Source of the DNA: Methanobacteriota archaeon
Lineage (GTDB): Archaea > Thermoplasmatota > Thermoplasmata > UBA10834
Length of the DNA stretch: 64,000 nt
Assembly (NCBI GenBank): GCA_020347565.1
Contig: CP070732.1
Coordinates: 861,216 to 925,215, forward strand
Direction of reading: 5' to 3'
Part shown: piece by piece, positions 6,867-63,175 of the stretch
How positions within the stretch are numbered: the first letter of the stretch is position 1
Layout of the letters: each line of letters starts with the position of its first letter
Position numbers and translations under genes: made by a program
Notes under the pieces: model-generated
Database searches by the model: none
What the model was told of the DNA's origin: nothing
Seen by the model: the letters and a program-made list of their open reading frames with translations, nothing else

Positions 6867-7502
6867 ATGAGCGATGGTAGAACGGTTCTGGTCCTGGCAC
6901 CGCACACCGACGATGGTGAACTGGGCTGCGGGGGCACCATAGCGAAGGAGGTCGAGCGCGGCAGCGAGGTTATCTACGTGGCGTTCTCGTCCGCAGACAG
7001 GTCGCTTCCCGAAGGCTATCCGAAAGGCACGCTCAAAAAGGAGCTGACATGCGCCACCAAGGTGCTGGGCGTGCGGAAGGACCATGTGGTGTGCTACGAT
7101 TACGACGTCAGGAACTTCCACGTCAAGCGCCAGGACATACTGGATGAAATGCTCAGGCTCCGGGAGGAGTACGGCCCCACCGTCGTCTTCGCTCCCTCGC
7201 TGAACGACCTCCACCAGGACCACAAGATAGTCGCCGAGGAGGCGAGGCGCATGTTCAAGCGGACATCGATCCTCGGCTACGAGATGCCCTGGAACAACAT
7301 CAGCTTCGACACGCTCTCCTTCTCCGTCCTGGAGAAGAGGCACGTGGACCAAAAGGTCGAGGCGCTGAAATGCTATGAGAGCCAACGCCACAGGGCCTAC
7401 CTGAACAGCGATTTCATCAACAGCTTGGCGCTCGCCAGGGGAGTCCAGGTATCGGTCCCCTACGCCGAGGCGTTCGAGGTCGTACGGTGGATAATGCCAT
7501 GA
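6867..7502 (+). CDS. PIG-L/LmbE-family N-acetylglucosaminyl deacetylase
   Basis: The protein has the VLVLAPHTDDGELGCGGTIAK motif, the PIG-L signature HPDDxE region. Its stop overlaps the next start (ATGA). Confidence 0.75.
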   Translation: MSDGRTVLVLAPHTDDGELGCGGTIAKEVERGSEVIYVAFSSADRSLPEGYPKGTLKKELTCATKVLGVRKDHVVCYDYDVRNFHVKRQDILDEMLRLREEYGPTVVFAPSLNDLHQDHKIVAEEARRMFKRTSILGYEMPWNNISFDTLSFSVLEKRHVDQKVEALKCYESQRHRAYLNSDFINSLALARGVQVSVPYAEAFEVVRWIMP

Positions 7503-8581
7503 GCAGCGAAGCCCTGGGACGCGTCTCAGTACTGGTCACCGCCGTCGGGGCGCCCGGCGCGGCGGGCATCATCAGCGCGCTTCGCAGGAACGGCGAGCGC
7601 GAGACTTCCGTGTTCGGCGTGGACATGAACTCCCAGGCTTCGGGAAAGGCATTGGTGGACGGCTTCTCGAAGGTGCCGAAGGGCAACGACCCCGGGTTCA
7701 TCGATGATATCATCGACGCAAGCCACGAGTTCGATGTCGGCGTGATCCTCCCGCTCTCTACGGAGGAGCTTCTGGCCTTCGCGTCCGCGAAGGACCGCAT
7801 ACGCGAATCGACAGGCGCCGTCACAGTGGTGAGCGCGAAGGACGCGATCGCCGCATCCAACGAGAAGGGTAAGCTGTTCACTAGACTGGCGTCGGCCGGG
7901 GTGCCAGTGCCGGAACACTCCGTCGTGCGGTCGCCCGCGCAGCTGAGGCGGGCGTGCGCCGAGCTTGGCCACCCTGGCCTCCCGGTCTGCATGAAACCGT
8001 CGTTCGCCCACGGCGGCAGGGGGTTCAGGGTCATCGAGGACTCGGCACCGACGGACGATACACTGCTCAGGCGGAAGCCCGAGAGCGCGTCGATATCCCT
8101 CGTCGAGGCGGAGCGACTGCTCGCGGGCCTGGAGAGCCCTCCAGAGATGCTCGTGATGGAGTTCCTTCCCGGTCGGGAGTACAGCGTCGACCTGCTCTGT
8201 TCGAAGGGCGAGATGCTCGTGGCGATACCGAGGTCGAGGGACGAGATACGGTCGGGCATAAGCTTCCGGGGAACCGTAGTCGACCGCGACGACGCGGTCG
8301 ACGTCTGCCGCAGGGTTTGCGATACGATGGAGTTCGACGGGCCCATCGGGGTGCAGTTTCGCGAGGACAGGGATGGCGCGCTCAAGGTGCTGGAGATCAA
8401 CCCTCGTCTGCACGGCAGCGTCGCGCTGTCGGTCGCTGCCGGCGTGAACGTGCCGTATCTGGCCGTCAAGGGTGCGCTGAACGAGCCGTTTGACATCCCA
8501 CCCATCAGGTACGGCACGACGATGACCAGGTACTGGGGTGCGACCTTCCATGACAAGGATGGACTTCCACATACACTCTGA
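7499..8581 (+). CDS. ATP-grasp domain protein (carbamoyl-phosphate-synthase-like carboxylate-amine ligase fold)
   Basis: A glycine-rich N-terminal domain is followed by a typical ATP-grasp core (…CMKPSFAHGGRGFRVIED…LVMEFLPGREYSVDLL…EINPRLHGS). The ATG at 7499 overlaps the PIG-L stop (ATGA). Confidence 0.65.
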   Translation: MSSEALGRVSVLVTAVGAPGAAGIISALRRNGERETSVFGVDMNSQASGKALVDGFSKVPKGNDPGFIDDIIDASHEFDVGVILPLSTEELLAFASAKDRIRESTGAVTVVSAKDAIAASNEKGKLFTRLASAGVPVPEHSVVRSPAQLRRACAELGHPGLPVCMKPSFAHGGRGFRVIEDSAPTDDTLLRRKPESASISLVEAERLLAGLESPPEMLVMEFLPGREYSVDLLCSKGEMLVAIPRSRDEIRSGISFRGTVVDRDDAVDVCRRVCDTMEFDGPIGVQFREDRDGALKVLEINPRLHGSVALSVAAGVNVPYLAVKGALNEPFDIPPIRYGTTMTRYWGATFHDKDGLPHTL

Positions 8582-15751: not shown

Positions 15752-15969
15752 TCACGGACCATATAAGTGCATTGACATCGAGGTCAGTGTGCCAGAATGC
15801 TCAATTCTGAGCTGCCTGACGGCGAACTGGCGTACATTGCCTCACGGACACGGCCAATCTTTTTATAACATATTCCCATAAGATTACGCACTGCTCAGAC
15901 GCTTCACGGACGGACTGTTACACCCTGTCCGTAGCCGCTGCGCACTAACTCGTTGAGGGGGGTCGTCGG

Positions 15970-17088
15970 TTGCCCAAGAGGAAATCATCTGCAGAGGGGA
16001 AGCCCACCTTCGCCGTATTGGGGGCGGGACACGGAGGTCTCGCCATGGCGGGGCACCTCGCGCTCATGGGCTTTCCCACGCACCTGTGGAACCGGTCGAA
16101 GGAGAAGATCGACCACGTGGAGGACCGAGGCGGCATCGACGTCATGGGTGTGGTCGAGGGCTTCGGCAGGCTCGAGCTGGCCACGGCGGACATGAAGGAG
16201 GCGCTGAGCGGGGCGGACATCGTAATGATCGTCGTCCCGGCTTCCGGTCACAAGGACGTAGCCGAGAAGTGCGCGAGGCATCTCAAGCAGGGGCAGCACG
16301 TGGTGCTCAACCCGGGAAGGACTTTCGGCGCCCTGGAGTTCCTCCAGACGCTTCGGAACAAGGGTGTCAGGGGACCGTCCACCGTCTCCGAGGCGCAGAC
16401 CTTCATATACGTTTCGAGGCACACGGACTTCGCCAGCTCTCACATCATGCAGATCAAGAACTCGGTCGCGATGGCCACGATACCTGCGCACAGGACGCCG
16501 AAGGTGCTGAAGGTTGTTACCAGGGCGTTCCCCCAGTTCGTGCCTGCGAGCAACGTGCTGGAGACGAGCCTGGACAACGTCGGCGCGGTCTTCCATCCGA
16601 CCCTCACGCTGCTGAACGCCACGAGGATCGAGTCGACGCATGGCGACTTCGAATACTATCTGGAGGGCGTAACACCGTCGACCGCGAGGATCCTCGAGGC
16701 CGCTGACGCCGAGAGGGTGGCCCTTGGAACGGCGCTCGGCGTGAGGCTGCACACCGCCCGGGAGTGGCTCTACCTGTCCTACGACTCGCCCGGCAGAACG
16801 CTCTACGAGGCCATACAGGCCACACCCGGATACAAGGGCGTGCGGGCCCCGGCTACCCTGACGCACAGGTACATCCTCGAGGACGTCCCGATGAGCATAG
16901 TGCCGATGGTCTCCGTCGGCCGTCAGCTCGGTGTCGAGACGCCGACGCTCGCATCCCTCGTGAACCTGGCCTCGCTGATACACGACAACGATTTCTGGAA
17001 GTCCGGCCGTACGGCTGAGCGGGTGGGGCTGGCCGGAAGGTCGGTGAAGGACATCAGGCTCCTCGCCGTGGAGGGGGCGCGCTCATGA
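15970..17088 (+). CDS. Opine (octopine/nopaline) dehydrogenase-family NAD(P)-dependent oxidoreductase
   Basis: A TTG start is followed by an N-terminal KPTFAVLGAGHGGLAMAGHLALMGFPTHLWNRS Rossmann motif. The ~370-aa length and the C-terminal helical domain are typical of the opine-DH family (the same family as CntM/ODH). A strong GAGGGGGG Shine-Dalgarno lies 10 nt upstream. Confidence 0.65.
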   Translation: MPKRKSSAEGKPTFAVLGAGHGGLAMAGHLALMGFPTHLWNRSKEKIDHVEDRGGIDVMGVVEGFGRLELATADMKEALSGADIVMIVVPASGHKDVAEKCARHLKQGQHVVLNPGRTFGALEFLQTLRNKGVRGPSTVSEAQTFIYVSRHTDFASSHIMQIKNSVAMATIPAHRTPKVLKVVTRAFPQFVPASNVLETSLDNVGAVFHPTLTLLNATRIESTHGDFEYYLEGVTPSTARILEAADAERVALGTALGVRLHTAREWLYLSYDSPGRTLYEAIQATPGYKGVRAPATLTHRYILEDVPMSIVPMVSVGRQLGVETPTLASLVNLASLIHDNDFWKSGRTAERVGLAGRSVKDIRLLAVEGARS

Positions 17089-18743
17089 GGGTGCTTGCAG
17101 CATCCGTTGGCAACTGCGTGCACGTCGCGGGGGTGCAGGCGTTCCTCGACGTGGCCCGGTCTTTCGGCTACGAGACCGTGTTCCTCGGCCCCGCCATGCC
17201 GATCGACAAGCTCACAGGGGCGATAAAGCAGCACGAGCCCGACCTGGTAGCGCTCAGCTACAGACTCAGCGAGGAGAGCGCCAAGGCCGTGTTCGAAGAC
17301 CTGAGGAAGGCGCTCGACAGCAACCCGGACATCGCCGGGAAGAGGTTCCTGTTCGGCGGGACACCGCCCGTCGCCCGACTTGCGCGCGAGTCGGGCATGT
17401 TCGAAGCGGCTTTCGACGGTAGCGAGCCCTTGGAGGTGACGATGGCCGTCCTCAGGGGCAGCGCGGCCGCCCAGGAGGACAGGGTCATGGGCGATACGCT
17501 GATGACACGTCTGCAGACGAACCATCCCTTCCCGCTCATCAGACATCACTTCGGTCAGCCGGACCTTCAGGAGACCATCGACGGCGTGCGGAGGCTGGCT
17601 GAGAGCGGCGCCCTTGACGTCATATCTATCGCCCCTGACCAGAACGCCCAGGAGTCGTTCTTCCGCCCAGACGAGATGGATTCCTCGCTCGCGGGTGCCG
17701 GAGGGGTGCCTCTGAGATCGCAGGACGACCTTGAGGCCCTGTACCAGGCCGCGCAGACGGGCAACAAGCCGTTGCTCAGGTGCTACAGCGGCACGAGGGA
17801 TCTCATCAAATGGGGTGGGATGCTCAAGGAGACCATCAAGGTCGCGTGGGGCGCCGTCCCACTGACATGGTACAGCGAACTGGACAGCAGGTCGAAGCGC
17901 CCGTTGCTGGATGCGATCAAGGAGAACCAGAAGGCCATCAGATGGTATGCGAAGAACGACATCCCGGTGGAAGTGAACGAGTCGCACCAGTGGGCCCTCA
18001 GGAGATCCGGCGACACAGTCGAGCTCGCGACCGCGTATCTTGCGGCGCACAACGCCAAAGCGCTTGGCGTGAGGAACTACGTGTGCCAGTTCATGTTCGA
18101 CACACCGAGGGGAATCTCGCCGGCTATGGACCTCGCGAAGATGTTCGCCAAGCTTGACCTCGTCGAGTCGCTCTCCGACGTCAACTTCAACGTCATCAGG
18201 ATGGTCCGTTCAGGACTGTCGTCATTGTCACCAAAGCCCAACCTCGCCAAGGGACAGCTCGCGGCGTCGATATACTCCGCAATGGCGCTCAAGCCACACA
18301 TAGTCCACGTCGTGGGCTACTCAGAGGCCGACCATGTCGCCACCGCCGACGAGATAGTGGAGAGCTGCGAGCTCGCCAACGGTGTCATCAGGAAGGCTCT
18401 GCTGGGGGTTCCGACGCCCGAGACCGACCCCGCTGTGGCGGAGCGAAAGGCCCAGCTCCTGGCGGATGCCCGGTTCCTGATCGAGGCCATCAAACGCCTC
18501 GAACAGGTGAACACCCACGACCCCCTCATAAGGCCGGAGGTCATCGCGACGGCGATAAAGGAGGGAATCCTGGACGCCCCTGACCTGAGGGGCAGCAGGG
18601 TTGCGAGGGGACGGATCACGACTGCGATGGTCAACGGGGCCTGTGTCCCCGTCGACAGCGCCACCGGCAGGGCGCTATCCGAGAAGGAGAGGATCGACGA
18701 GATAGCCATAAGCGAGAAGGACTTGGACCTGGCGGAGATATAG
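17085..18743 (+). CDS. Glutamate-mutase-like fusion protein: N-terminal GlmS-like B12-binding Rossmann domain (variant C-x-H-x-x-G motif) plus ~420-aa C-terminal domain (possibly GlmE-like TIM barrel)
   Basis: The N-terminus RVLAASVGNCVHVAGVQAF...LGPAMP...PDLVALSYRL...FLFGGTPP aligns to the GlmS sequence IVLGVIGSDCHAVGNKIL...SSLYG...LLYVGGN as I recall it. The remainder has weak, order-consistent resemblance to GlmE, also judged from my memory of that sequence. The start overlaps the opine-DH stop (ATGA). Confidence 0.45.
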   Translation: MRVLAASVGNCVHVAGVQAFLDVARSFGYETVFLGPAMPIDKLTGAIKQHEPDLVALSYRLSEESAKAVFEDLRKALDSNPDIAGKRFLFGGTPPVARLARESGMFEAAFDGSEPLEVTMAVLRGSAAAQEDRVMGDTLMTRLQTNHPFPLIRHHFGQPDLQETIDGVRRLAESGALDVISIAPDQNAQESFFRPDEMDSSLAGAGGVPLRSQDDLEALYQAAQTGNKPLLRCYSGTRDLIKWGGMLKETIKVAWGAVPLTWYSELDSRSKRPLLDAIKENQKAIRWYAKNDIPVEVNESHQWALRRSGDTVELATAYLAAHNAKALGVRNYVCQFMFDTPRGISPAMDLAKMFAKLDLVESLSDVNFNVIRMVRSGLSSLSPKPNLAKGQLAASIYSAMALKPHIVHVVGYSEADHVATADEIVESCELANGVIRKALLGVPTPETDPAVAERKAQLLADARFLIEAIKRLEQVNTHDPLIRPEVIATAIKEGILDAPDLRGSRVARGRITTAMVNGACVPVDSATGRALSEKERIDEIAISEKDLDLAEI

Positions 18744-18775
18744 AGCCGTGGTCGTCTGACGGAGTTGCAGCTGAG

Positions 18776-20248
18776 ATGGAAGGAATAGCCGGTACGTACG
18801 GACACGAAGACTGTGCCCTGGTAGGCAGAATGCTGAGGAAGCTGAGGCATCGCGGGCCGGGCAGGAAGAGGATCCACGCCGACGACGGCCTCGTGCTCGG
18901 CGCGCGGGCGGCGGTCACGGATTCGGCCGTGAGGAACACCCCGATGGCGGAGAGGGACGGCGTTGTCGTCGCCAGCGACTCGTACATATTCAACAGGCAG
19001 GCGCTCCGAACGGCGTTCGCCCCCGAGGCGAGTGCCGCCGCGTCCGATGCCGAGCTCCTTCTGGGCATGTACGAGGACCTCGGGACCGACATGTTCGGAT
19101 ACATCGACGGCGCCTATGCCGTCGCCATCGCGGACGGACGGAAGACCGTGCTGGCCAGGGACAGGTACGGCATCAAGCCGCTCTACCTCTCGGGCGGCGT
19201 GAGGAGGGGTACCTTCTCGTCCGAGATGAAGTCGCAGCTGCTCGCCAAGCAGGACTTCATACCGTTCCCGCCAGGCAAGGTCATGGTCAAGGGCAAGGGC
19301 GTGACGCCTGTGAGACAGAAGACGACCTACGTCGCCCGAGTGGCCGGTGACGCCGGCGCGAAGGCGCTGAGGTCGACGCTGATGGGGGCTACCCAGGCGG
19401 CTCTCGAGGACGGTGACAGGGCGAACATACTCCTGAGCGGAGGCGTGGACAGCAGCGCTATCGCTGCTGCGGCGTCCTGCCTTACGGACGACATCGACAC
19501 CGTGTGCGTCGCCTACGAGGGTGGGACCGACGCGGACATGGCTAGGAAGGTCTCCGAAGAGCTGGGAACGGACCACAGGGAGAGGGAGTACGAGGAGGAC
19601 GAGATGCTCGACCTGCTGGACGAGGTCGTCTACTCGGCCGAGACTTTCGACTACCCGCTGGTGAGGAGCTGCATACCAAACTACATAGCAACCCACTCGT
19701 TCCCCGATAGGGACAGGATAACGCTGTGCGGCGAGGGGGGCGACGAAGTGTTCGCAGGGTACGACTACATGCGGGAGATCGCTGACGATGGCCGGCTGCG
19801 CCGCGAGAGGAAGCTCCTGCTCCGCGCAGGCCACCTGACCGGCTTCCACAGGGTCGACAGGATGACGTCGTCGGCGTCGCTCGACGGCAGGATGCCGATT
19901 ATGAGCAGGTCCGTCGTCGACCTAGGCCTTGGAATGAGCAGGAGCGCAATCCTCGGGAGTGACATCAGCGAGAGCAAGCTGGCGCTGAGGAAGGCGTTCG
20001 CCGACATGCTGCCCGATGAGGTCGTCACGAGGGAGAAGAAGCGCTTCAGCGACGGTGCGGGCTCCCTCACAGCGCTCGTCAGGAGGGCAGAGAGCTTGAT
20101 ATCGGACGCCGAGTTCGACAGGGAGCGCACGGCGTTGCCTGGGGACAGGATACGTACGAAGGAAGAGCTTCTGTATTACAGGACCTTCGCTAAGCACTTC
20201 GACTCGCCGAGCGCGACCAGAGCCGTTGGCTTCACGCCGAGGCCTTGA
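18776..20248 (+). CDS. Asparagine synthetase (AsnB)-family protein with degenerate N-terminal glutaminase domain (Cys2 replaced by Glu)
   Basis: The N-terminus is MEGIAG...LRHRGPG..., against canonical MCGI(A/F)G...HRGPD. The PP-loop ILLSGGVDSS is intact. Length is 490 aa. Confidence 0.75.
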   Translation: MEGIAGTYGHEDCALVGRMLRKLRHRGPGRKRIHADDGLVLGARAAVTDSAVRNTPMAERDGVVVASDSYIFNRQALRTAFAPEASAAASDAELLLGMYEDLGTDMFGYIDGAYAVAIADGRKTVLARDRYGIKPLYLSGGVRRGTFSSEMKSQLLAKQDFIPFPPGKVMVKGKGVTPVRQKTTYVARVAGDAGAKALRSTLMGATQAALEDGDRANILLSGGVDSSAIAAAASCLTDDIDTVCVAYEGGTDADMARKVSEELGTDHREREYEEDEMLDLLDEVVYSAETFDYPLVRSCIPNYIATHSFPDRDRITLCGEGGDEVFAGYDYMREIADDGRLRRERKLLLRAGHLTGFHRVDRMTSSASLDGRMPIMSRSVVDLGLGMSRSAILGSDISESKLALRKAFADMLPDEVVTREKKRFSDGAGSLTALVRRAESLISDAEFDRERTALPGDRIRTKEELLYYRTFAKHFDSPSATRAVGFTPRP

Positions 20249-20336
20249 GCTGCGTCGTCGGCCGCGCAGCCGGGGCCGTCGTCGATAGCTAGATGAAGGG
20301 GGTCGCGGATTCGGGCACGGCCGAGAGGGCGGACCG

Positions 20337-21257
20337 TTGAAGATATCGAAGAACGTCGCTTATGTCCTGATGGGGCTGGCGGCGCTTGCATGGGCTACGT
20401 CGGGCACGCTCACCGTGCTCGCCATAGACGAAGGGGCGACGGCGAACGTCATAGCCCTGTACTCGGAGATATTCAGCGTTGCCATGTTCTTCACCGCAAT
20501 ACTAATCATAGACCGACGCGCCTTCATGATTCGCCGGGCGGACTTCATCCCGTTCCTGCTGTTCAGCACGGTGACGGGGGCGCTTTTCTCGGTGGCATGG
20601 TACCACTGCATCGACCTCACTTCGGTGACTACCGCTGTTGTACTGCTGTGCTCGTATCCTAGCATAGTCACAGTGGCCTCGATATTCCTCCTCGGTGAGA
20701 GGATGACTGCCGCGAAGGCGGTTGCTCTGCCGACGACGTTCATCGGATGCGTCTTCGTTGCCGAGGCTTACGACGTCGAGGCGATTCGTGTCAACGCGCT
20801 CGGTATCGCGCTCGGCGTCTTCACCGCGTTCTGCGCCGCCGCGTACTACATCTGGGGCAAGAAGTTCCTGAAGCTGTACTCGCCGTATACCGTCGCGCTG
20901 TACTTCTCCGGCCTCATGCTGCCCGCGCTGGTGATACTGACCAACCCTGCGAAGTCGCTCCTCCCCAGCCTGTCGCCAACCGCCTGGCTGATCGTATTCC
21001 TCATAGGGCTCATACCCTGCACTGTCGGGTTCTTCATATCGATGGTCGCCCTTAAGCGCATAGAGGCCAGCAAGGCCAGCATCGTGGCCAGTCTAGAGCC
21101 GGTGATGGCTGTCGCGCTGGCGGTCATCATAGTGTCCGAGGCGGTCGGCGGGCTCCAGATGGTCGGTGTCGCGCTCGTCATCGTGGGCATACTGACCCTG
21201 CGCTTGGTGAGACGAGAGGATGAGGACGCCCCGGTCGAGGCGCCGGCGAAGAGATAA
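20337..21257 (+). CDS. EamA/DMT-superfamily transporter (10 predicted TM helices)
   Basis: The protein has two EamA-type repeats of hydrophobic helices. A TTG start has GAGAGGG 9 nt upstream. An alternative ATG lies at 20370. Confidence 0.75.
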   Translation: MKISKNVAYVLMGLAALAWATSGTLTVLAIDEGATANVIALYSEIFSVAMFFTAILIIDRRAFMIRRADFIPFLLFSTVTGALFSVAWYHCIDLTSVTTAVVLLCSYPSIVTVASIFLLGERMTAAKAVALPTTFIGCVFVAEAYDVEAIRVNALGIALGVFTAFCAAAYYIWGKKFLKLYSPYTVALYFSGLMLPALVILTNPAKSLLPSLSPTAWLIVFLIGLIPCTVGFFISMVALKRIEASKASIVASLEPVMAVALAVIIVSEAVGGLQMVGVALVIVGILTLRLVRREDEDAPVEAPAKR

Positions 21258-21330
21258 TCTCTTCGACGCGTCGGAAGGGTGGAAGGCAAACGGCATATAC
21301 GCATGCCGGCATCAGGTCAAGCAGAGTTCG

Positions 21331-22083
21331 ATGATCGTCACGCGCGTGCCTAGCGGCATTCCGGGCCTGGACACGGCGCTCCAGGGAGGCATACCCGTCA
21401 ACTCCGCACTGGCCCTCAGGGGCGAGGCGTCGAACTACTGCGAGGCTTTTCAGCAGCAGTTCGTGGTTGAGGGGCTGAAGCACGGTTCTCCAGCGATATA
21501 CTGCTGCACTTCCCGCCCGGTCGCGACCATAATAAGGAGCATGAGGCACCAAGGGTTCGACGTCAAGGAGTACATCGTCAACGACGAGCTGGTCTTCCTC
21601 GACTGCTACTCCGCCCACAAGCGAACTTCGGTCGCGGGCGTCGACAGCGACGTTCAGAGGAAGATAATAACCGTCTCGGACGCCGACGACGAGAAGATGC
21701 TCCAGAACGGTCTCGCCACGGCCGTCGAGAGGGTGCCAAACATCAAGGGCGTCAGGGCGGTGTGCGAGAACGTTCCAGGATCGCTCACGAATAAATCGCC
21801 GACCGAGATGATGAGATGGGGCAGGAGATCGTTCGGCGACCTGCGCGCCTTCCAGACGATCGTGCTCCACACGTTCCCCCACGGCGTACGCGAGGAGCTG
21901 TTCACGATGATGGCTTCCGACTTCGACGGCCTGTTCGAGCTCAAGGCGGAGAGAGGGCTCGATCGCGTGAGGTACTACCTCAGCATACCGAAAATGAGGA
22001 TGACCGTTCTGCCGCCTAAGATGCACGAACTCGACATCAACAACGGCGTCGTCACGCTGAAGACGATACAGAAGATCACATGA
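21331..22083 (+). CDS. KaiC/RecA-superfamily-like protein with degenerate Walker A (pseudo-ATPase)
   Basis: The N-terminus has the VPSGIPGLDTALQGGIPVNSALALRGEASNYCEAF motif. The KaiC-type GIPGLD..L.GG.P motif is kept, but the P-loop GxxGxGK(T/S) is replaced by RGEASNY. Confidence 0.5.
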   Translation: MIVTRVPSGIPGLDTALQGGIPVNSALALRGEASNYCEAFQQQFVVEGLKHGSPAIYCCTSRPVATIIRSMRHQGFDVKEYIVNDELVFLDCYSAHKRTSVAGVDSDVQRKIITVSDADDEKMLQNGLATAVERVPNIKGVRAVCENVPGSLTNKSPTEMMRWGRRSFGDLRAFQTIVLHTFPHGVREELFTMMASDFDGLFELKAERGLDRVRYYLSIPKMRMTVLPPKMHELDINNGVVTLKTIQKIT

Positions 22084-23879: not shown

Positions 23880-24518
23880 TCAGCCGCGGGCCCCCTTGAT
23901 CAGCGTCCTGGACACCACACCGCCCACCACGGTCAGGTCCTCCGTGGGCAGTATCTTCGCAGCGCTCGCGTCGTACAGAATGCTCGCTGAGGCAGACACC
24001 TCGGAGTCACCGAGCCAGAGTATCACGGCCACTGGCAGCCTGTCGAAGAAACGGACCTTCACGCCGACTGTACCCACCTCCAACGGTTCAGCGTTCAGCT
24101 TGGCCGCCACACGCCTCAGGCGCTCCGGGCTGAGCCCGAACTCCTCGACCAGTGGGTCAATGGTCCTCGCCTTGAAGGCCGGGTAATACAGCGCCCCGCC
24201 TGACAGCTCGCGGAAGGAGATGAGGCGGTCGGTCAGCTGCGTCTTGGTCGCCCCGGCGAGGTAGTGCAGTATCAACACCTGAAGGAACCTGGGGACCTCG
24301 GGGCCACCCAAATCGCTGTACGTGACCGCCTTCCCGCTCAGGTCAACGAAGCACTCGTCGTTGAGCATGGCAAGGCGGAGAACTGAAGGTCTGCCGTCGA
24401 CGACCGCGCCGAGGTCCTCTGCCAGCTGCCGAGGGTCCAGTTCTTCCAGGGCGGCCCACGCGAGCTCAAGCGCGTCCGTCAAGGGCGCCTTTCTGCCCGA
24501 TCCGACCCGCACCGTCAT
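23880..24518 (-). CDS. Conserved hypothetical protein co-transcribed with acsE (possibly DUF3786-family, acs-cluster associated)
   Basis: The 212-aa protein has a start that overlaps the acsE stop (ATGA). The family assignment comes from my recollection that DUF3786 genes accompany acs operons. It was not verified. Confidence 0.45.
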   Translation of the reverse strand: MTVRVGSGRKAPLTDALELAWAALEELDPRQLAEDLGAVVDGRPSVLRLAMLNDECFVDLSGKAVTYSDLGGPEVPRFLQVLILHYLAGATKTQLTDRLISFRELSGGALYYPAFKARTIDPLVEEFGLSPERLRRVAAKLNAEPLEVGTVGVKVRFFDRLPVAVILWLGDSEVSASASILYDASAAKILPTEDLTVVGGVVSRTLIKGARG

Positions 24519-25291
24519 GCCCTCAGGAACGAAGGCGCGTAGAGCTTCCTGTTGAGGAGCACCTCCGCCGCCTTCACCACCTTCATGAGCTCGGCGTCGT
24601 TAGGGTCCACGATCGCCGCATCTAGGCCCCTCCCGAGCAGCATGGCGAGATATGTCCGGTTCAGCAGCGACCGCTCCTCCGCGCCGCTCGAGACGTTGCT
24701 GAGACCGACTACAGTCTTGGGCGACGGGTCGTTGAGCGTTCTGAAGGATGTTATCGCGTCGCATACGTCGGGGCACTGGCTCTGGGCGGCCGATATCGGC
24801 AGCACAACCGGGTCGAGGTACACCTTCTCCGGAGGTATGCCCTGGTCCATGGCCGTCGCGAGCAACAACATGGCAATCTCCGTACGCCCCTCCGCGGAGT
24901 TCGGTATGCCCTTCTCATCGATGGTGAGACAGACTATCTCGGCGTTATGCTCCTTCGCCAGTGGGAAGAACTTCTCCATGCGCTTCTGCTCTGCCGTGGT
25001 CGAGTTGATCAGGGGCTCGCGGTTGCACGCAGACAGCCCGGCCGTCTGCGTCTTGAGCCCGGGTGAGTCTATGCAAAGCTTGACGTCGGCCACGTCCTGG
25101 ATCGTCTTGACGAGCCACGCGATGGCCTCCTGGGCGTCGTCCCTTCCCGGACCGGTGTTGACGTCCAGCACGTCCGCGCCGCCCTCGATTTGCTCGTTCG
25201 CAAGTCCCTGGATGTACTTCTCGTCGCGATCGTCTATGGCCTTCGCGACCTGTGGGAACTGACCGTTGATCCTCTCGCCTATCACTATCAT
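24515..25291 (-). CDS. acsE: Methyltetrahydrofolate:corrinoid/iron-sulfur protein Co-methyltransferase (pterin-binding, DHPS-like)
   Basis: The protein reads MIVIGERINGQF...GADVLDVN...LCIDSP...INSTTAEQ...FPLAKEH...DPVVLPISAAQ...VGLSNVS...RTYLAMLLGRGLDAAIVDP. This is co-linear with Moorella AcsE (MLIIGERINGMF...LDLNVG...LCLDST...NSTNAERE...). Length is 258 aa. Confidence 0.9.
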   Translation of the reverse strand: MIVIGERINGQFPQVAKAIDDRDEKYIQGLANEQIEGGADVLDVNTGPGRDDAQEAIAWLVKTIQDVADVKLCIDSPGLKTQTAGLSACNREPLINSTTAEQKRMEKFFPLAKEHNAEIVCLTIDEKGIPNSAEGRTEIAMLLLATAMDQGIPPEKVYLDPVVLPISAAQSQCPDVCDAITSFRTLNDPSPKTVVGLSNVSSGAEERSLLNRTYLAMLLGRGLDAAIVDPNDAELMKVVKAAEVLLNRKLYAPSFLRA

Positions 25292-25427
25292 CTCTCAACC
25301 CCCGCCAATGGTTGTTTGAAGGCCATACACCGTTAGTCTGATATCAATCATTCGGCTCTCCGCGAAGCGCCTGGGACAGCACAACAGTTAATACCGATGC
25401 TAATCGATTGCTGGACGCTGGTCTCGG

Positions 25428-27338
25428 ATGTCTGGTGAGGAGGAGGGGACCCTTTGCACGGTGAGTTTCTCACCTGACGGCGTCGCCGTCGAGATGGTCA
25501 GAGGCACTACCATCCTCGAGGCCTGCAGAGCCGCTGGCATAGCCATAGACGCTGTCTGCGGAGGCACCGGCAAATGCGGCAGATGCAAGGTAAGGCCGAA
25601 GGGGCTTTTCGACCCCGGAGACACCTCCGCCCTCGCCGAGGAAGAACGGGAGTCCGGCGTGGTCCTGGCGTGCGAGACGTTGGTGACCGGCGACCTCGAA
25701 GTGGAGGTGCTGCCGCGCTCAAGGATACGCGAGCATCAAATCCTGACCAGGACGCTGGAGACGCCGGTCGTCAAGCTGTCGCCCTGGGTCAGGAAGGTTC
25801 TGCTGGAGCTCCCGAAGGCCACCCTCTACGACAACACGGCGGATTTCGAGAGGGTCCTGCGAGCGCTAGGCGATAGGAACCTCGAGATGCCCATAGTCAC
25901 GCTCCGCAACATGTCGAACGTCCTGCGGGAAGGCGGGTGGACCGTGACGGCGACGGTGGCCGACCTGAAGAGCAGAGGCGAGATAACGCGTCTCGAGCCC
26001 GGGGACAAGTGCGGCTGCCTCCTGGGGGTCGCGATCGACATCGGCACGACGACGGTCGTCGGGCAGCTTATCGACCTGCTGACGGGCGATGTGCTCGCCA
26101 GCGCATCCGAGTACAACAGGCAGATATCCAAGGGCGAGGACGTCATCGCGAGGATGATGTACGGCGAGGAGAACGGCGTTGGGGAGCTGACGGACCTCGC
26201 GAGAGAGACTGTCAACTCGGTCATCGGCAGGCTGCTGGAGGACACGTCGAAGGAGCGGGAGTGTCCCGTCACCGCCGTCGACGTCGTCGGTGCGGCCATC
26301 GCCGGCAACACGATAATGACGCACTTCTTCGTAGGCGTCGATACGCGCTTCATACGGCTCGAGCCGTACGTTCCCGTAGCCCATCACATGCCGCCGCGCA
26401 GCGGCCATGACCTCGGCATGGAGGCTCACCCATCCAGCGATGTGCTCCTGTTCCCGTCGAGGGCGGGCTACCTCGGCGGAGATGTCGTGGCAGACGTGCT
26501 CGCGAGCGGCATTCACAGGAGCGACGACCTCGCGATGCTGATAGACGTGGGCACCAACGGCGAAATCGTCCTCGGGTGCAGGGAGTGGCTCGTGTCCTGC
26601 GCGTGCTCCGCCGGGCCTGCGTTCGAGGGCGGGGAGGTGTCGTCCGGCATGAGGGCCATGCATGGCGCGATAGACAGCATACGCGTCAACCACGACTTCG
26701 CAACCTCGTACCATGTAATAGGCGATGAGCGGCCGAACGGCATCTGCGGGTCCGGGCTAATAGACCTGATCGCGGAGATGTACGAGAACGGCGTGATAGA
26801 CCGCAAAGCTCGGATACAGCGGCTCCAGACGGACAGGGTAAGGGAGGGCGAGGAAGGGCTGGAGTACGTCGTCGAGTTCCAAGGGAGCCTCGGCGAGGGC
26901 GCGACCGGTGACCTCGTCATAACCGACGCCGACCTGCAGAACGTCCTCAGGACGAAGGCCGCGATCTTCGGCGCAGCGACGGTCCTGCTCAGGAAGATGA
27001 GCGAAGACCTGGACGGCATCGACACGTTTGTGATCGCCGGGGGGTTCGGCAACCACCTCGACATAGACCGCGCCGTCTCTATCGGTATGTTCCCTGACAT
27101 ACCAAGGGACAAGTACAGGTTCATAGGCAACGGGGCCCTCGAGGGCGCGAGGCTCGCTCTGCTCTCAGAGGAGATGCGGAAGGACATGGTGGAGATATTC
27201 GACCAGATGACGTACATCGAGCTGAGCGTGGACAACGACTTCTACGACGAGTTCACCTCCTCGATGTTCATACCGCACACGGATCTCGCGAAGTTCCCCA
27301 GCTTCAAAGACAGAGGGTCACAGGAGACGGCGAGATGA
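25428..27338 (+). CDS. Reductive activator of corrinoid protein (RACo/AcsV): N-terminal [2Fe-2S] ferredoxin + ASKHA ATPase (DUF4445)
   Basis: The N-terminus carries plant-type ferredoxin cysteines (CGGTGKCGRCKV...C). The ~630-aa length matches RACo. The ATPase-like middle and C-terminus and the location inside the acs cluster also fit. Confidence 0.8.
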   Translation: MSGEEEGTLCTVSFSPDGVAVEMVRGTTILEACRAAGIAIDAVCGGTGKCGRCKVRPKGLFDPGDTSALAEEERESGVVLACETLVTGDLEVEVLPRSRIREHQILTRTLETPVVKLSPWVRKVLLELPKATLYDNTADFERVLRALGDRNLEMPIVTLRNMSNVLREGGWTVTATVADLKSRGEITRLEPGDKCGCLLGVAIDIGTTTVVGQLIDLLTGDVLASASEYNRQISKGEDVIARMMYGEENGVGELTDLARETVNSVIGRLLEDTSKERECPVTAVDVVGAAIAGNTIMTHFFVGVDTRFIRLEPYVPVAHHMPPRSGHDLGMEAHPSSDVLLFPSRAGYLGGDVVADVLASGIHRSDDLAMLIDVGTNGEIVLGCREWLVSCACSAGPAFEGGEVSSGMRAMHGAIDSIRVNHDFATSYHVIGDERPNGICGSGLIDLIAEMYENGVIDRKARIQRLQTDRVREGEEGLEYVVEFQGSLGEGATGDLVITDADLQNVLRTKAAIFGAATVLLRKMSEDLDGIDTFVIAGGFGNHLDIDRAVSIGMFPDIPRDKYRFIGNGALEGARLALLSEEMRKDMVEIFDQMTYIELSVDNDFYDEFTSSMFIPHTDLAKFPSFKDRGSQETAR

Positions 27339-62813: not shown

Positions 62814-62887
62814 AGCGGGCCCGGTGGGATTTGAACCCACGTCGTCGGCTCCGAAGGCCAAAAGGATGTCCGAACTACCCTACGGGC
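62814..62887 (-). tRNA. tRNA-Arg (anticodon TCG)
   Basis: Reverse complement: GGGCCCG-TA-GGGT-AGTTCGGAC-ATCC-TT-TTGGC-CTTCGGA-GCCGA-CGAC-GTGGG-TTCAAAT-CCCAC-CGGGCCC-G. It has a 7-bp acceptor stem, a canonical T-arm (GTGGG/TTCAAAT/CCCAC), and an anticodon loop CT-TCG-GA with U33. The D-arm register is slightly atypical. No encoded CCA. Confidence 0.75.
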
Positions 62888-63175
62888 CCAGAGACGAGAT
62901 TGCCCTGTCGTATATATCCTTTGCAGGCACGGCGGCCAAATGTGATTACATCCGATTCGAACAAGGGCTCCGTACGGCTCACATGTTCGTTTCAACGCCT
63001 GTGATCACACTCACCTGTCAAGCACAATGCTGATTCTCACCCGGGATAATCTGTCCCTTGTTAGGGACAGAAAATAATATATTGCCATCAAGTGAGTCAG
63101 TATAACACCCCCACCAACGCGGAATTGCAGCACTGTCTCACAGTCGATGACACAGATACAGCATAAGCGGTAGAC

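Follow-up and report, generated by a model that had tools for sequence, protein, structure and literature searches.

What is made by a run of genes that sets an opine dehydrogenase next to a B12-type mutase and an asparagine synthetase-like enzyme? The question is raised by positions 15970-22083 of the DNA analysed here, a 64,000-nucleotide stretch of contig CP070732.1 from a Methanobacteriota archaeon of the Thermoplasmata, hereafter called the window. A preliminary description of this DNA had grouped five genes into one pathway that makes and exports an opine-type metabolite, possibly a metallophore or a beta-lactam-like compound. The five co-directional open reading frames (ORFs) are indeed present on the + strand, and Pfam and NCBIfam agree with all five family assignments. 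What stands of the pathway is its first part, an undescribed small-molecule unit of three conserved genes around a genuine opine dehydrogenase, whereas the last two genes, encoding an EamA transporter and a KaiC-like protein, accompany it only in one syntenic archaeal sub-lineage. We propose, with confidence evenly balanced for and against, that 15970-20248 represents, in archaeal form, a three-enzyme cassette that is widespread yet undescribed and would make a small, highly polar amino-acid derivative of the compatible-solute type that protects against osmotic or ionic stress.

The first three genes form a widespread cassette

The opine dehydrogenase (ODH) gene occupies 15970-17088 (+; Pfam Octopine_DH, 3.9e-49), the mutase-like gene (MUT) 17085-18743 (+; B12-binding, 2e-08, over residues 2-96 only) and the AsnB-like gene (ASN) 18776-20248 (+; Asn_synthase, 9.9e-44, plus GATase_7). 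Related loci were collected by a one-genome-per-species scan, which yielded 21, and a metagenome scan, which added 80 more; all ORFs were clustered and 104 loci were counted. ODH clusters with MUT in 97 of the 104. Among the loci with enough sequence (95 for ODH, 87 for ASN), ODH lies within 150 nt of MUT in at least 82, and 69 have ASN as a direct neighbour. The genes usually run ODH-MUT-ASN, mostly 0-30 nt apart, an arrangement that lies well outside what chance would produce. The conservation of gene order that the preliminary description had proposed to check is thus found for the trio, but outside one lineage it does not extend to the EamA and KaiC-like genes.

The third position of the cassette is variable. 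A Ddl-like ATP-grasp ligase replaces ASN in 8 Bacillota loci (8 of 105), and 14 loci have no third gene. Since the third enzyme can be a glutamine-dependent AsnB, a Ddl-like protein or absent, the invariant core is ODH plus MUT, and the conserved unit is two to three genes, not five. At two loci (L045, 5481-6752; L102, 6626-7825), an ATP-grasp gene of the 'Ter operon' type (PF15632) adjoins the cassette and would represent a third kind of carboxylate-amine ligase in the slot of ASN and the Ddl-like protein. In Anaerolinea (L106/L107, 6288-9110; L108, 6348-9107), the order is reversed, MUT then ODH, with neither ASN nor a Ddl-like gene; the cultured A. thermophila carries the minimal MUT-ODH pair.

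Carriers belong to the Thermoplasmata, Bacillota, Bacteroidales, Armatimonadota and Anaerolineae, and to the Planctomycetota (MUT gene only, on a contig-end fragment); most are anaerobes from sediments and digesters. Pairwise identities of MUT, ODH and ASN correlate moderately (Spearman 0.43-0.62; 0.16-0.27 for distant pairs), and this correlation alone is no proof of co-inheritance. No paper on the ODH-MUT-ASN combination, or on a link between ydaO riboswitches and opines, was found in the searchable literature, which agrees with the earlier claim of novelty. The parts come from known families; what appears to be undescribed is the way the genes are combined, the barrel of the mutase, an orphan by sequence, and the coupling to cyclic di-AMP (c-di-AMP) and Na+/Li+ riboswitches.

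ODH resembles enzymes acting on acidic amino acids

ODH scores 167 bits on Pfam Octopine_DH (PF02317), against a cut-off of 30, and carries an N-terminal Rossmann motif, GAGHGG, at residues 18-23. Its closest PDB match is Arthrobacter CENDH/ArODH (1bg6), aligned over the full length at 1.1e-78, and no structure of the staphylopine/pseudopaline dehydrogenase CntM is among its PDB matches. The window enzyme has all of the catalytic His202, Arg292-Tyr293 and Asp297 (ArODH numbering), as do no fewer than 95 of the 98 cassette ODHs compared. The positions that determine NADPH use read Asn41/Ser43.

Characterised relatives offer a guide to the substrate. Telek et al. (2024) assayed six hot-spring metagenomic ODHs (mODH-45, mODH-47, mODH-48, mODH-49, mODH-55 and mODH-582), and the characterised enzymes prefer L-Asp, accept L-Glu, cysteate and homocysteate, and work with pyruvate and mostly NADPH (PMC10787698). 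In the same study, reciprocal double mutants swapped the specificity, so that Arg111 and Gly198 (ArODH numbering) set the preference for L-Asp (PMC10787698). In the window ODH these positions are filled by Arg117 and by the Gly of NVGAVFH; the Arg is found in 92 of the 98 cassette ODHs and the Gly in 94. The window enzyme is 73% identical to mODH-44, 44-49% to the characterised mODHs and 40% to ArODH, values that are slightly underestimated for the mODHs, whose sequences were machine-read from the paper's supplement. Furthermore, the closest UniProt homologue of mODH-45, at 93%, is an ODH of Anaerolinea thermophila (PMC10787698). This homologue is encoded directly after a 546-aa B12-binding MUT gene, and the same holds in another Anaerolinea genome; the published ODH biochemistry therefore belongs to cassette-type enzymes. 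The paper treats them as isolated biocatalysts, gene context and physiological role being absent from it (PMC10787698).

The window ODH thus shares with CENDH/ArODH and the mODHs the family, the fold, the catalytic residues, the Arg111/Gly198 pair and the NADPH-type residues. It differs from them in being known from sequence, whereas they have been assayed, and its association with B12 mutase and AsnB-like genes is new here. We consider it a probable NADPH-type ODH of the acidic-amino-acid class (L-Asp or L-Glu plus pyruvate), a specificity transferred through the two diagnostic residues. With L-Asp as substrate, the characterised ODHs reach a kcat/KM of just 0.04-1.5 s-1 mM-1 (PMC10787698). 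Such low values leave room for a better natural substrate, for which 3-methylaspartate would be the obvious candidate; its (2S,3S) form goes unmentioned in the main text of the paper (PMC10787698).

MUT is predicted to fuse the two halves of a glutamate mutase-like enzyme

In MUT, residues 1-125 form a B12-binding domain like that of GlmS, and residues ~145-540 a TIM barrel like that of GlmE. Pfam gives no match for the ~400 aa after the B12 domain, PF06368 (Met_asp_mut_E) being absent at E<=0.01, and comparison with PDB sequences, including a profile search to E<=10, gave no meaningful match for the barrel. An AlphaFold2 model (34 homologues in the alignment, mean pLDDT 87) has as its best structural relative glutamate mutase E (1cb7_B; score 31.0, 368 residues aligned). 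Ornithine 4,5-aminomutase OraE (27.8) and lysine 5,6-aminomutase KamD (27.7) follow, then methylmalonyl-CoA-type mutases (about 21) and pterin/DHPS-type methyltransferase barrels (about 15). The model indicates that MUT has a GlmE-type TIM-barrel fold, and the GlmS/E-like fusion proposed in the preliminary description is real at the level of the predicted fold.

Compared with GlmS/GlmE (1cb7), OraSE and KamDE, MUT differs in fusing both subunits, in the order S-E, and in having an opine dehydrogenase as its obligatory partner. Its barrel shows no detectable sequence similarity to that of GlmE. In GlmE the substrate is bound by Arg66, Arg100, Arg149, Glu171 and Tyr181.

The variant cofactor motif noted earlier is also present: C11-x-H13-x-x-G16 takes the place of DxHxxG, the form found in GlmS. 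His13, Gly16 and Ser58 stand at canonical spacing, the Leu of the SxL motif is Arg60, and Gly91-Gly92 follow 33 residues after Ser58, as against 29-30 in MetH and GlmS. His13 and Gly16 are invariant in both alignments made, one archaeal and one cross-lineage; Gly91-Gly92 is invariant only in the archaeal one, and across lineages G91 is kept in about 90% and G92 in fewer. Most members have Cys where DxHxxG has its Asp; the Asp itself is found in L003, L008 and L015. Since both residues occur, the variant motif seems to be interchangeable with the canonical one. In the aminomutases OraSE and KamDE, pyridoxal phosphate (PLP) is held by a Lys of the Rossmann domain. No Lys of this domain is invariant in either MUT alignment, which argues against a PLP-dependent aminomutase mechanism for MUT.

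MUT belongs to a large family: among the candidates, over 5,800 proteins match at E<=0.001, and at E<=1e-30 there are 242 clusters (50% identity). Thousands of sequences of the family come from anaerobic habitats. The barrel is also found in a subfamily of 600-636 aa with a different N-terminus of ~190 aa (among them P0283, P0286 and P0293) and in very long multi-domain proteins of 1226-1266 aa (P0268, P0270).

ASN is best read as an amidating enzyme

ASN begins MEGIAG, with no in-frame start upstream, and the glutaminase Cys is replaced by Glu, as the preliminary description had stated. The altered positions of the glutaminase site are Cys1 to Glu (residue 2), Asn74 to Asp, Gly75 to Ser and Glu76 to Tyr. 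On the other hand, the PP-loop SGGVDSS and residues E348, D351, E352, Y357, R387 and K449 are present and invariant in 61 cassette ASN proteins. Judging from these residues, the glutaminase half is dead in the window archaeon and the synthetase site intact.

By similarity, ASN is far closer to E. coli AsnB (1.3e-47) than to beta-lactam synthetase (beta-LS, 3.8e-23) or CarA (7.3e-09). It scores 310.7 bits on the NCBIfam AsnB equivalog NF006949, below the cut-off of 499, and matches TIGR03104 (AsnO) at 1.7e-35, again below cut-off. Two cassette ASN proteins exceed the AsnB cut-off, those of L016 (546.8 bits) and L021 (558.5 bits), both from the clade that keeps the Cys. A role as housekeeping asparagine synthetase was set aside for the window protein on account of its dead glutaminase site and its score far below the equivalog cut-off, a judgement that does not extend to the Cys clade. 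When aligned to beta-LS (1jgt), ASN has Glu at the position of Tyr348 and Arg at that of Glu382, two residues which we take to be the catalytic dyad of beta-LS.

Comparison of the 61 proteins shows how the glutaminase domain varies. A clade of 11 members retains Cys1, and it alone has R49, N74, G75 and E76 intact. In the archaeal clade, position 1 is E or Q, accompanied by N74D, G75S and E76Y, and in a third clade most of the N-terminal domain is gone. Depending on the clade, the residue found at position 1 can be E, Q, S, A, G or P, a variety that looks like relaxed loss of function and not like a new specialisation. The equivalent of AsnB Asp384 is Gly, Ala or Asn in the cassette proteins.

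The simplest reading of these sequences is that ASN amidates its substrate, using glutamine where Cys1 and the glutaminase site are kept and free ammonia where they have decayed; the glutamine-dependent Cys1 state is possibly ancestral. ASN shares with AsnB the PP-loop adenylating domain and every synthetase residue examined, and differs from it by an inactive or truncated glutaminase domain, some cassette members being of the full glutamine-dependent AsnB type. AsnB itself can use ammonia. A precedent for an AsnB homologue that amidates a compatible solute is AsnO, in the pathway of N-acetylglutaminylglutamine amide.

Riboswitches and neighbours suggest a link of the bacterial cassettes to osmotic and ionic stress

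Of 66 bacterial loci scanned with Rfam, 12 have a c-di-AMP (ydaO, RF00379) riboswitch on the coding strand just 5' of the first gene of the cassette, scoring 72-111 bits against a cut-off of 38. A promoter-like site precedes the riboswitch; in L076 this site is followed by the aptamer, a terminator-like hairpin and then ODH. Cassettes with ASN, with a Ddl-like gene and with the ODH-MUT pair only are all represented among the 12 loci, which comprise several Bacillota, one Armatimonadota and metagenome-derived loci with no taxonomic assignment. In L078, an nhaA-I Li+/Na+ riboswitch precedes MscS-ASN-MUT-ODH. The neighbouring genes point the same way: MscS occurs in 8 loci and is directly adjacent in L021, L077 and L078, and Na+/H+ exchangers adjoin the cassette in 4. 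MarC genes occur at 8 loci, MFS transporters at 6, and a DUF1646 gene at L015.

To our knowledge, the known c-di-AMP regulon consists mainly of transporters and cell-wall enzymes, and no biosynthetic ODH-mutase operon has been reported as a member. The bacterial cassettes share with this regulon bona fide RF00379 leaders whose promoter- and terminator-like elements stand in the expected order; the archaeal window differs in having no such RNA. More generally, c-di-AMP is well established as the master regulator of homeostasis for potassium and osmolytes, and its known receptors include CBS domains (PMC10117814).

In 12 archaeal loci (L002, L026-L032, L035, L036, L038 and L039), a divergent regulator with a winged helix (HVO_A0114-like) and a CBS pair lies 5' of ODH; the window, L001 and L022 lack it. 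Both c-di-AMP and adenosyl ligands can be bound by CBS domains, and this regulator may be the archaeal counterpart of the bacterial riboswitch.

In the window itself, an Rfam scan gave no riboswitch or other match near the cassette at the gathering threshold; the sole match in the 64 kb is a tRNA gene at 62816-62889 (-). A TATA/BRE-like box, CAATCTTTTTATAAC, was recognised by eye at 15853-15869 (+), ~100 nt 5' of the ODH start, and is a candidate for the archaeal promoter of the cassette. The CAATCTTTTTATAAC block is kept in the orthologous leaders of L001 and L022, and the leaders of L032 and L035 have the AT-rich TTTAATAG at the equivalent position. A Shine-Dalgarno-like GAGGGGGGT leads into the TTG start of ODH (15956-15972, +), and the stop of ODH overlaps the start of MUT as ATGA (17085-17088), so that both the TTG start and the coupling described earlier are present. 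The ODH orthologue on the sister contig L023 is called at 372 aa, which fits the TTG start; the same orthologue is called at 347 aa on L022.

The ODH leader contains a possible hairpin, ACGGAC...GTCCGT (15905-15945), and at the equivalent place L001 has a different one, TCAGGGCG...CGCCCTGA (~2570-2610). Pairing that is kept while the sequence changes hints, from two sequences only, at a regulatory RNA structure.

Three other RNA features were seen near cassettes. A T-box in L012 was considered as a cassette regulator and rejected; it belongs to an upstream class I aminoacyl-tRNA synthetase gene (Val_tRNA-synt_C arm, probably ValRS). In L040, a fluoride riboswitch (7487-7557) lies directly 3' of MUT, ahead of a 211-aa gene, and probably has no connection with the cassette. 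Three Bacillota loci (L013, 10857-11491; L014, 9828-10561; L003, 12684-13817) have arrays of 7-9 tRNA genes just 3' of the cassette.

The EamA and KaiC-like genes and other neighbours

The fourth gene of the run encodes an EamA/DMT transporter (20337-21257, +; EamA 9.5e-31, two repeats). The fifth is readable at 21220-22083 (+) and encodes a KaiC-like protein (PF06745, 2.9e-20). EamA adjoins the trio in 7 loci only, all of one fully syntenic lineage, and the KaiC-like gene follows EamA in 5 closely related archaeal loci only; the loci concerned are the window, L001, L022/23, L032 and L035-37. In this lineage PurP, EMG1, an aminotransferase and the downstream genes are syntenic too, and in other archaeal lineages the trio lies in different neighbourhoods, with neither EamA nor KaiC-like gene. 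From this distribution, EamA would possibly be an exporter recruited in the window lineage and not a conserved member of the cassette, and the KaiC-like gene is probably unrelated to it. EamA and the P-loop-less KaiC-like gene form a conserved pair of their own in the archaeal lineage of the window (five loci).

The degenerate P-loop reported for the KaiC-like protein is confirmed: Walker A, GxxxxGK[ST], is absent, and its position reads ALRGEASNYCEAF (RGEASNYCEAF). A KaiC fold of this kind is predicted to be unable to hydrolyse ATP in the usual way. The orthologue in L022 has 250 aa, matching a start at Met38 (21331), which is the most likely start of the gene; the 38-nt overlap with EamA is therefore probably not real.

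Two kb downstream of the run, at 23880-27338, lie genes for a DUF3786 protein (-), a pterin-binding MtrH/MeTr-like protein (-) and a RACo/RamA-like corrinoid reductive activator (+). They look like a corrinoid methyl-transfer and reactivation module, and the host organism is clearly a heavy user of B12.

A proposed pathway and its alternatives

Three steps could connect the enzymes of the cassette. In the first, ODH would use NADPH to condense L-Asp, L-Glu or a close analogue with pyruvate, giving an N-(1-D-carboxyethyl) amino acid; this step is taken from experiments on homologues, carried over through the two diagnostic residues. In the second, MUT, by its modelled fold, might catalyse a radical 1,2-rearrangement of the adenosylcobalamin type on the opine or on its amino-acid precursor. 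The reaction native to this fold interconverts the glutamate and 3-methylaspartate skeletons and would give an aspartate-like side chain. In the third, to judge from its intact active site, ASN would adenylate a carboxylate and convert it into an amide, thereby removing one negative charge; in the window archaeon the nitrogen would come from free ammonia, since the glutaminase half appears dead. EamA could then export the product in the window lineage. Our best reading of this product is an osmoadaptive amide of an N-(carboxyethyl) acidic amino acid, the exact chemistry of which we infer.

The alternative that survives best is a catabolic or fermentative module, in which the cassette would serve Glu/Asp fermentation or redox balance. 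The opine made from pyruvate would then act as an NAD(P)H sink, or an environmental N-carboxyalkyl amino acid would be degraded, with the product excreted through variable transporters. Opine formation is such a sink in anoxic invertebrates, and ODH reactions are reversible. The nearest structural relatives of MUT (GlmE, OraE and KamD) serve amino-acid fermentation beside dehydrogenases, the carriers are mostly anaerobes of sediments and digesters, and exporter-type genes recur beside the cassette. Glutamate pools are, moreover, tied to c-di-AMP and potassium homeostasis (PMC10117814). However, ammonia lyases, CoA transferases and hydratases are not conserved among the neighbours of 100 loci, and the third gene usually (69 of 87 loci) encodes an enzyme that spends ATP on forming an amide, which suits biosynthesis better. 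Nor does this alternative, which we consider unlikely, explain the Na+/Li+ riboswitch or the neighbouring MscS and Na+/H+ exchanger genes.

A role in the cell envelope is more improbable still. Here the bacterial cassette would supply or modify a D-configured or branched amino acid for the stem peptides of peptidoglycan, ASN acting like the AsnB of Bacillus that amidates meso-diaminopimelate and the Ddl-like enzyme ligating the product. Opine formation does create a D-configured centre, and in L013 and L014 there is a 4-nt overlap between ODH and the Ddl-like gene. MurD, M14/M20 peptidases, GGT and a beta-lactamase-fold gene lie near some Bacillota loci, and c-di-AMP riboswitches are known to control cell-wall as well as transport genes. 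Yet archaea of the Thermoplasmata, which lack peptidoglycan, conserve the cassette just as well. Confined to their 8 loci, the partners of Ddl-like type score below the D-Ala-D-Ala ligase cut-off (193 versus 243 bits), and cell-wall genes are not among the commonest immediate neighbours.

The two products suggested in the preliminary description are, of the alternatives, the least compatible with the evidence. A polycarboxylate chelator exported by EamA, in the manner of staphylopine and pseudopaline, would be in keeping with the genuine opine dehydrogenase, with the EamA gene that follows in the window lineage and with some chelating potential of N-(carboxyethyl)-aspartate-type products, which would be aminopolycarboxylates. 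Indeed, the Cnt clusters share with the cassette an ODH-family enzyme and, for pseudopaline, an EamA/DMT exporter. The cassette ODH, however, belongs to a different, CENDH-type subfamily, and it is accompanied by B12 mutase and AsnB-like genes. The absence of CntL noted earlier holds: neither a CntL/nicotianamine synthase-like gene, nor CntK, a dedicated importer (TonB, ABC or other) or a metal regulator is found among the annotated neighbours of L022 or the 25 commonest families of 138 immediate neighbours (100 loci). The regulation that can be read is by c-di-AMP and Na+/Li+, not by metal, EamA is confined to one syntenic lineage, and amidation would weaken chelation, all of which makes a metallophore very improbable. 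Cyclisation of an N-(carboxyalkyl) amino acid to a beta-lactam or other lactam by a Cys-less ASN can be all but dismissed: the lost nucleophile is common to ASN, beta-LS and CarA, and a shift from (1-carboxyethyl) to (2-carboxyethyl) by the mutase would give a beta-LS-type substrate, but the Tyr348 and Glu382 positions are changed, ASN resembles AsnB much more than either of these enzymes, the glutaminase site is complete in 11 of the cassette ASN proteins, two cassette members pass the AsnB equivalog cut-off, and position 1 varies in the way of relaxed loss.

Several points also weigh against the stress-protective product that we prefer. The product itself, the order of the first two steps, the reaction and substrate of the mutase and the carboxylate that is amidated are all reached by inference. 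The low kcat/KM on L-Asp means that Asp may not be the true substrate, and with Cys for the Asp of DxHxxG in most MUT members, cobalamin binding is putative. An unamidated Asp or Glu opine would be a polyanion, unusual for a classical neutral compatible solute. The c-di-AMP riboswitch is present in just 12 of the 66 bacterial loci, and riboswitches of this class also drive cell-wall and transport genes. Finally, the window has no riboswitch and its lineage no winged-helix/CBS regulator; the link to stress is therefore transferred from bacteria.

In its fullest form, which we put forward tentatively and hold to be less likely than the cassette reading itself, the stress-protective pathway would be a new route to a stress metabolite in archaea and at least five bacterial phyla. 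Fused adenosylcobalamin-type mutases would rearrange the opine or feed 3-methylaspartate to ODH, amidation would follow, and in bacteria the route would be a direct output of c-di-AMP and Na+/Li+ riboswitches. If this is true, a large uncharacterised family of B12-type mutases would gain a function, and the 'orphan' Asp-preferring ODHs, already used as biocatalysts, would gain a physiological role. A biosynthetic pathway would enter the transporter-dominated regulon of c-di-AMP riboswitches, and a new small molecule would be added to the biology of abundant, mostly uncultured anaerobes among the Thermoplasmata, Anaerolineae, Bacillota and Bacteroidales.

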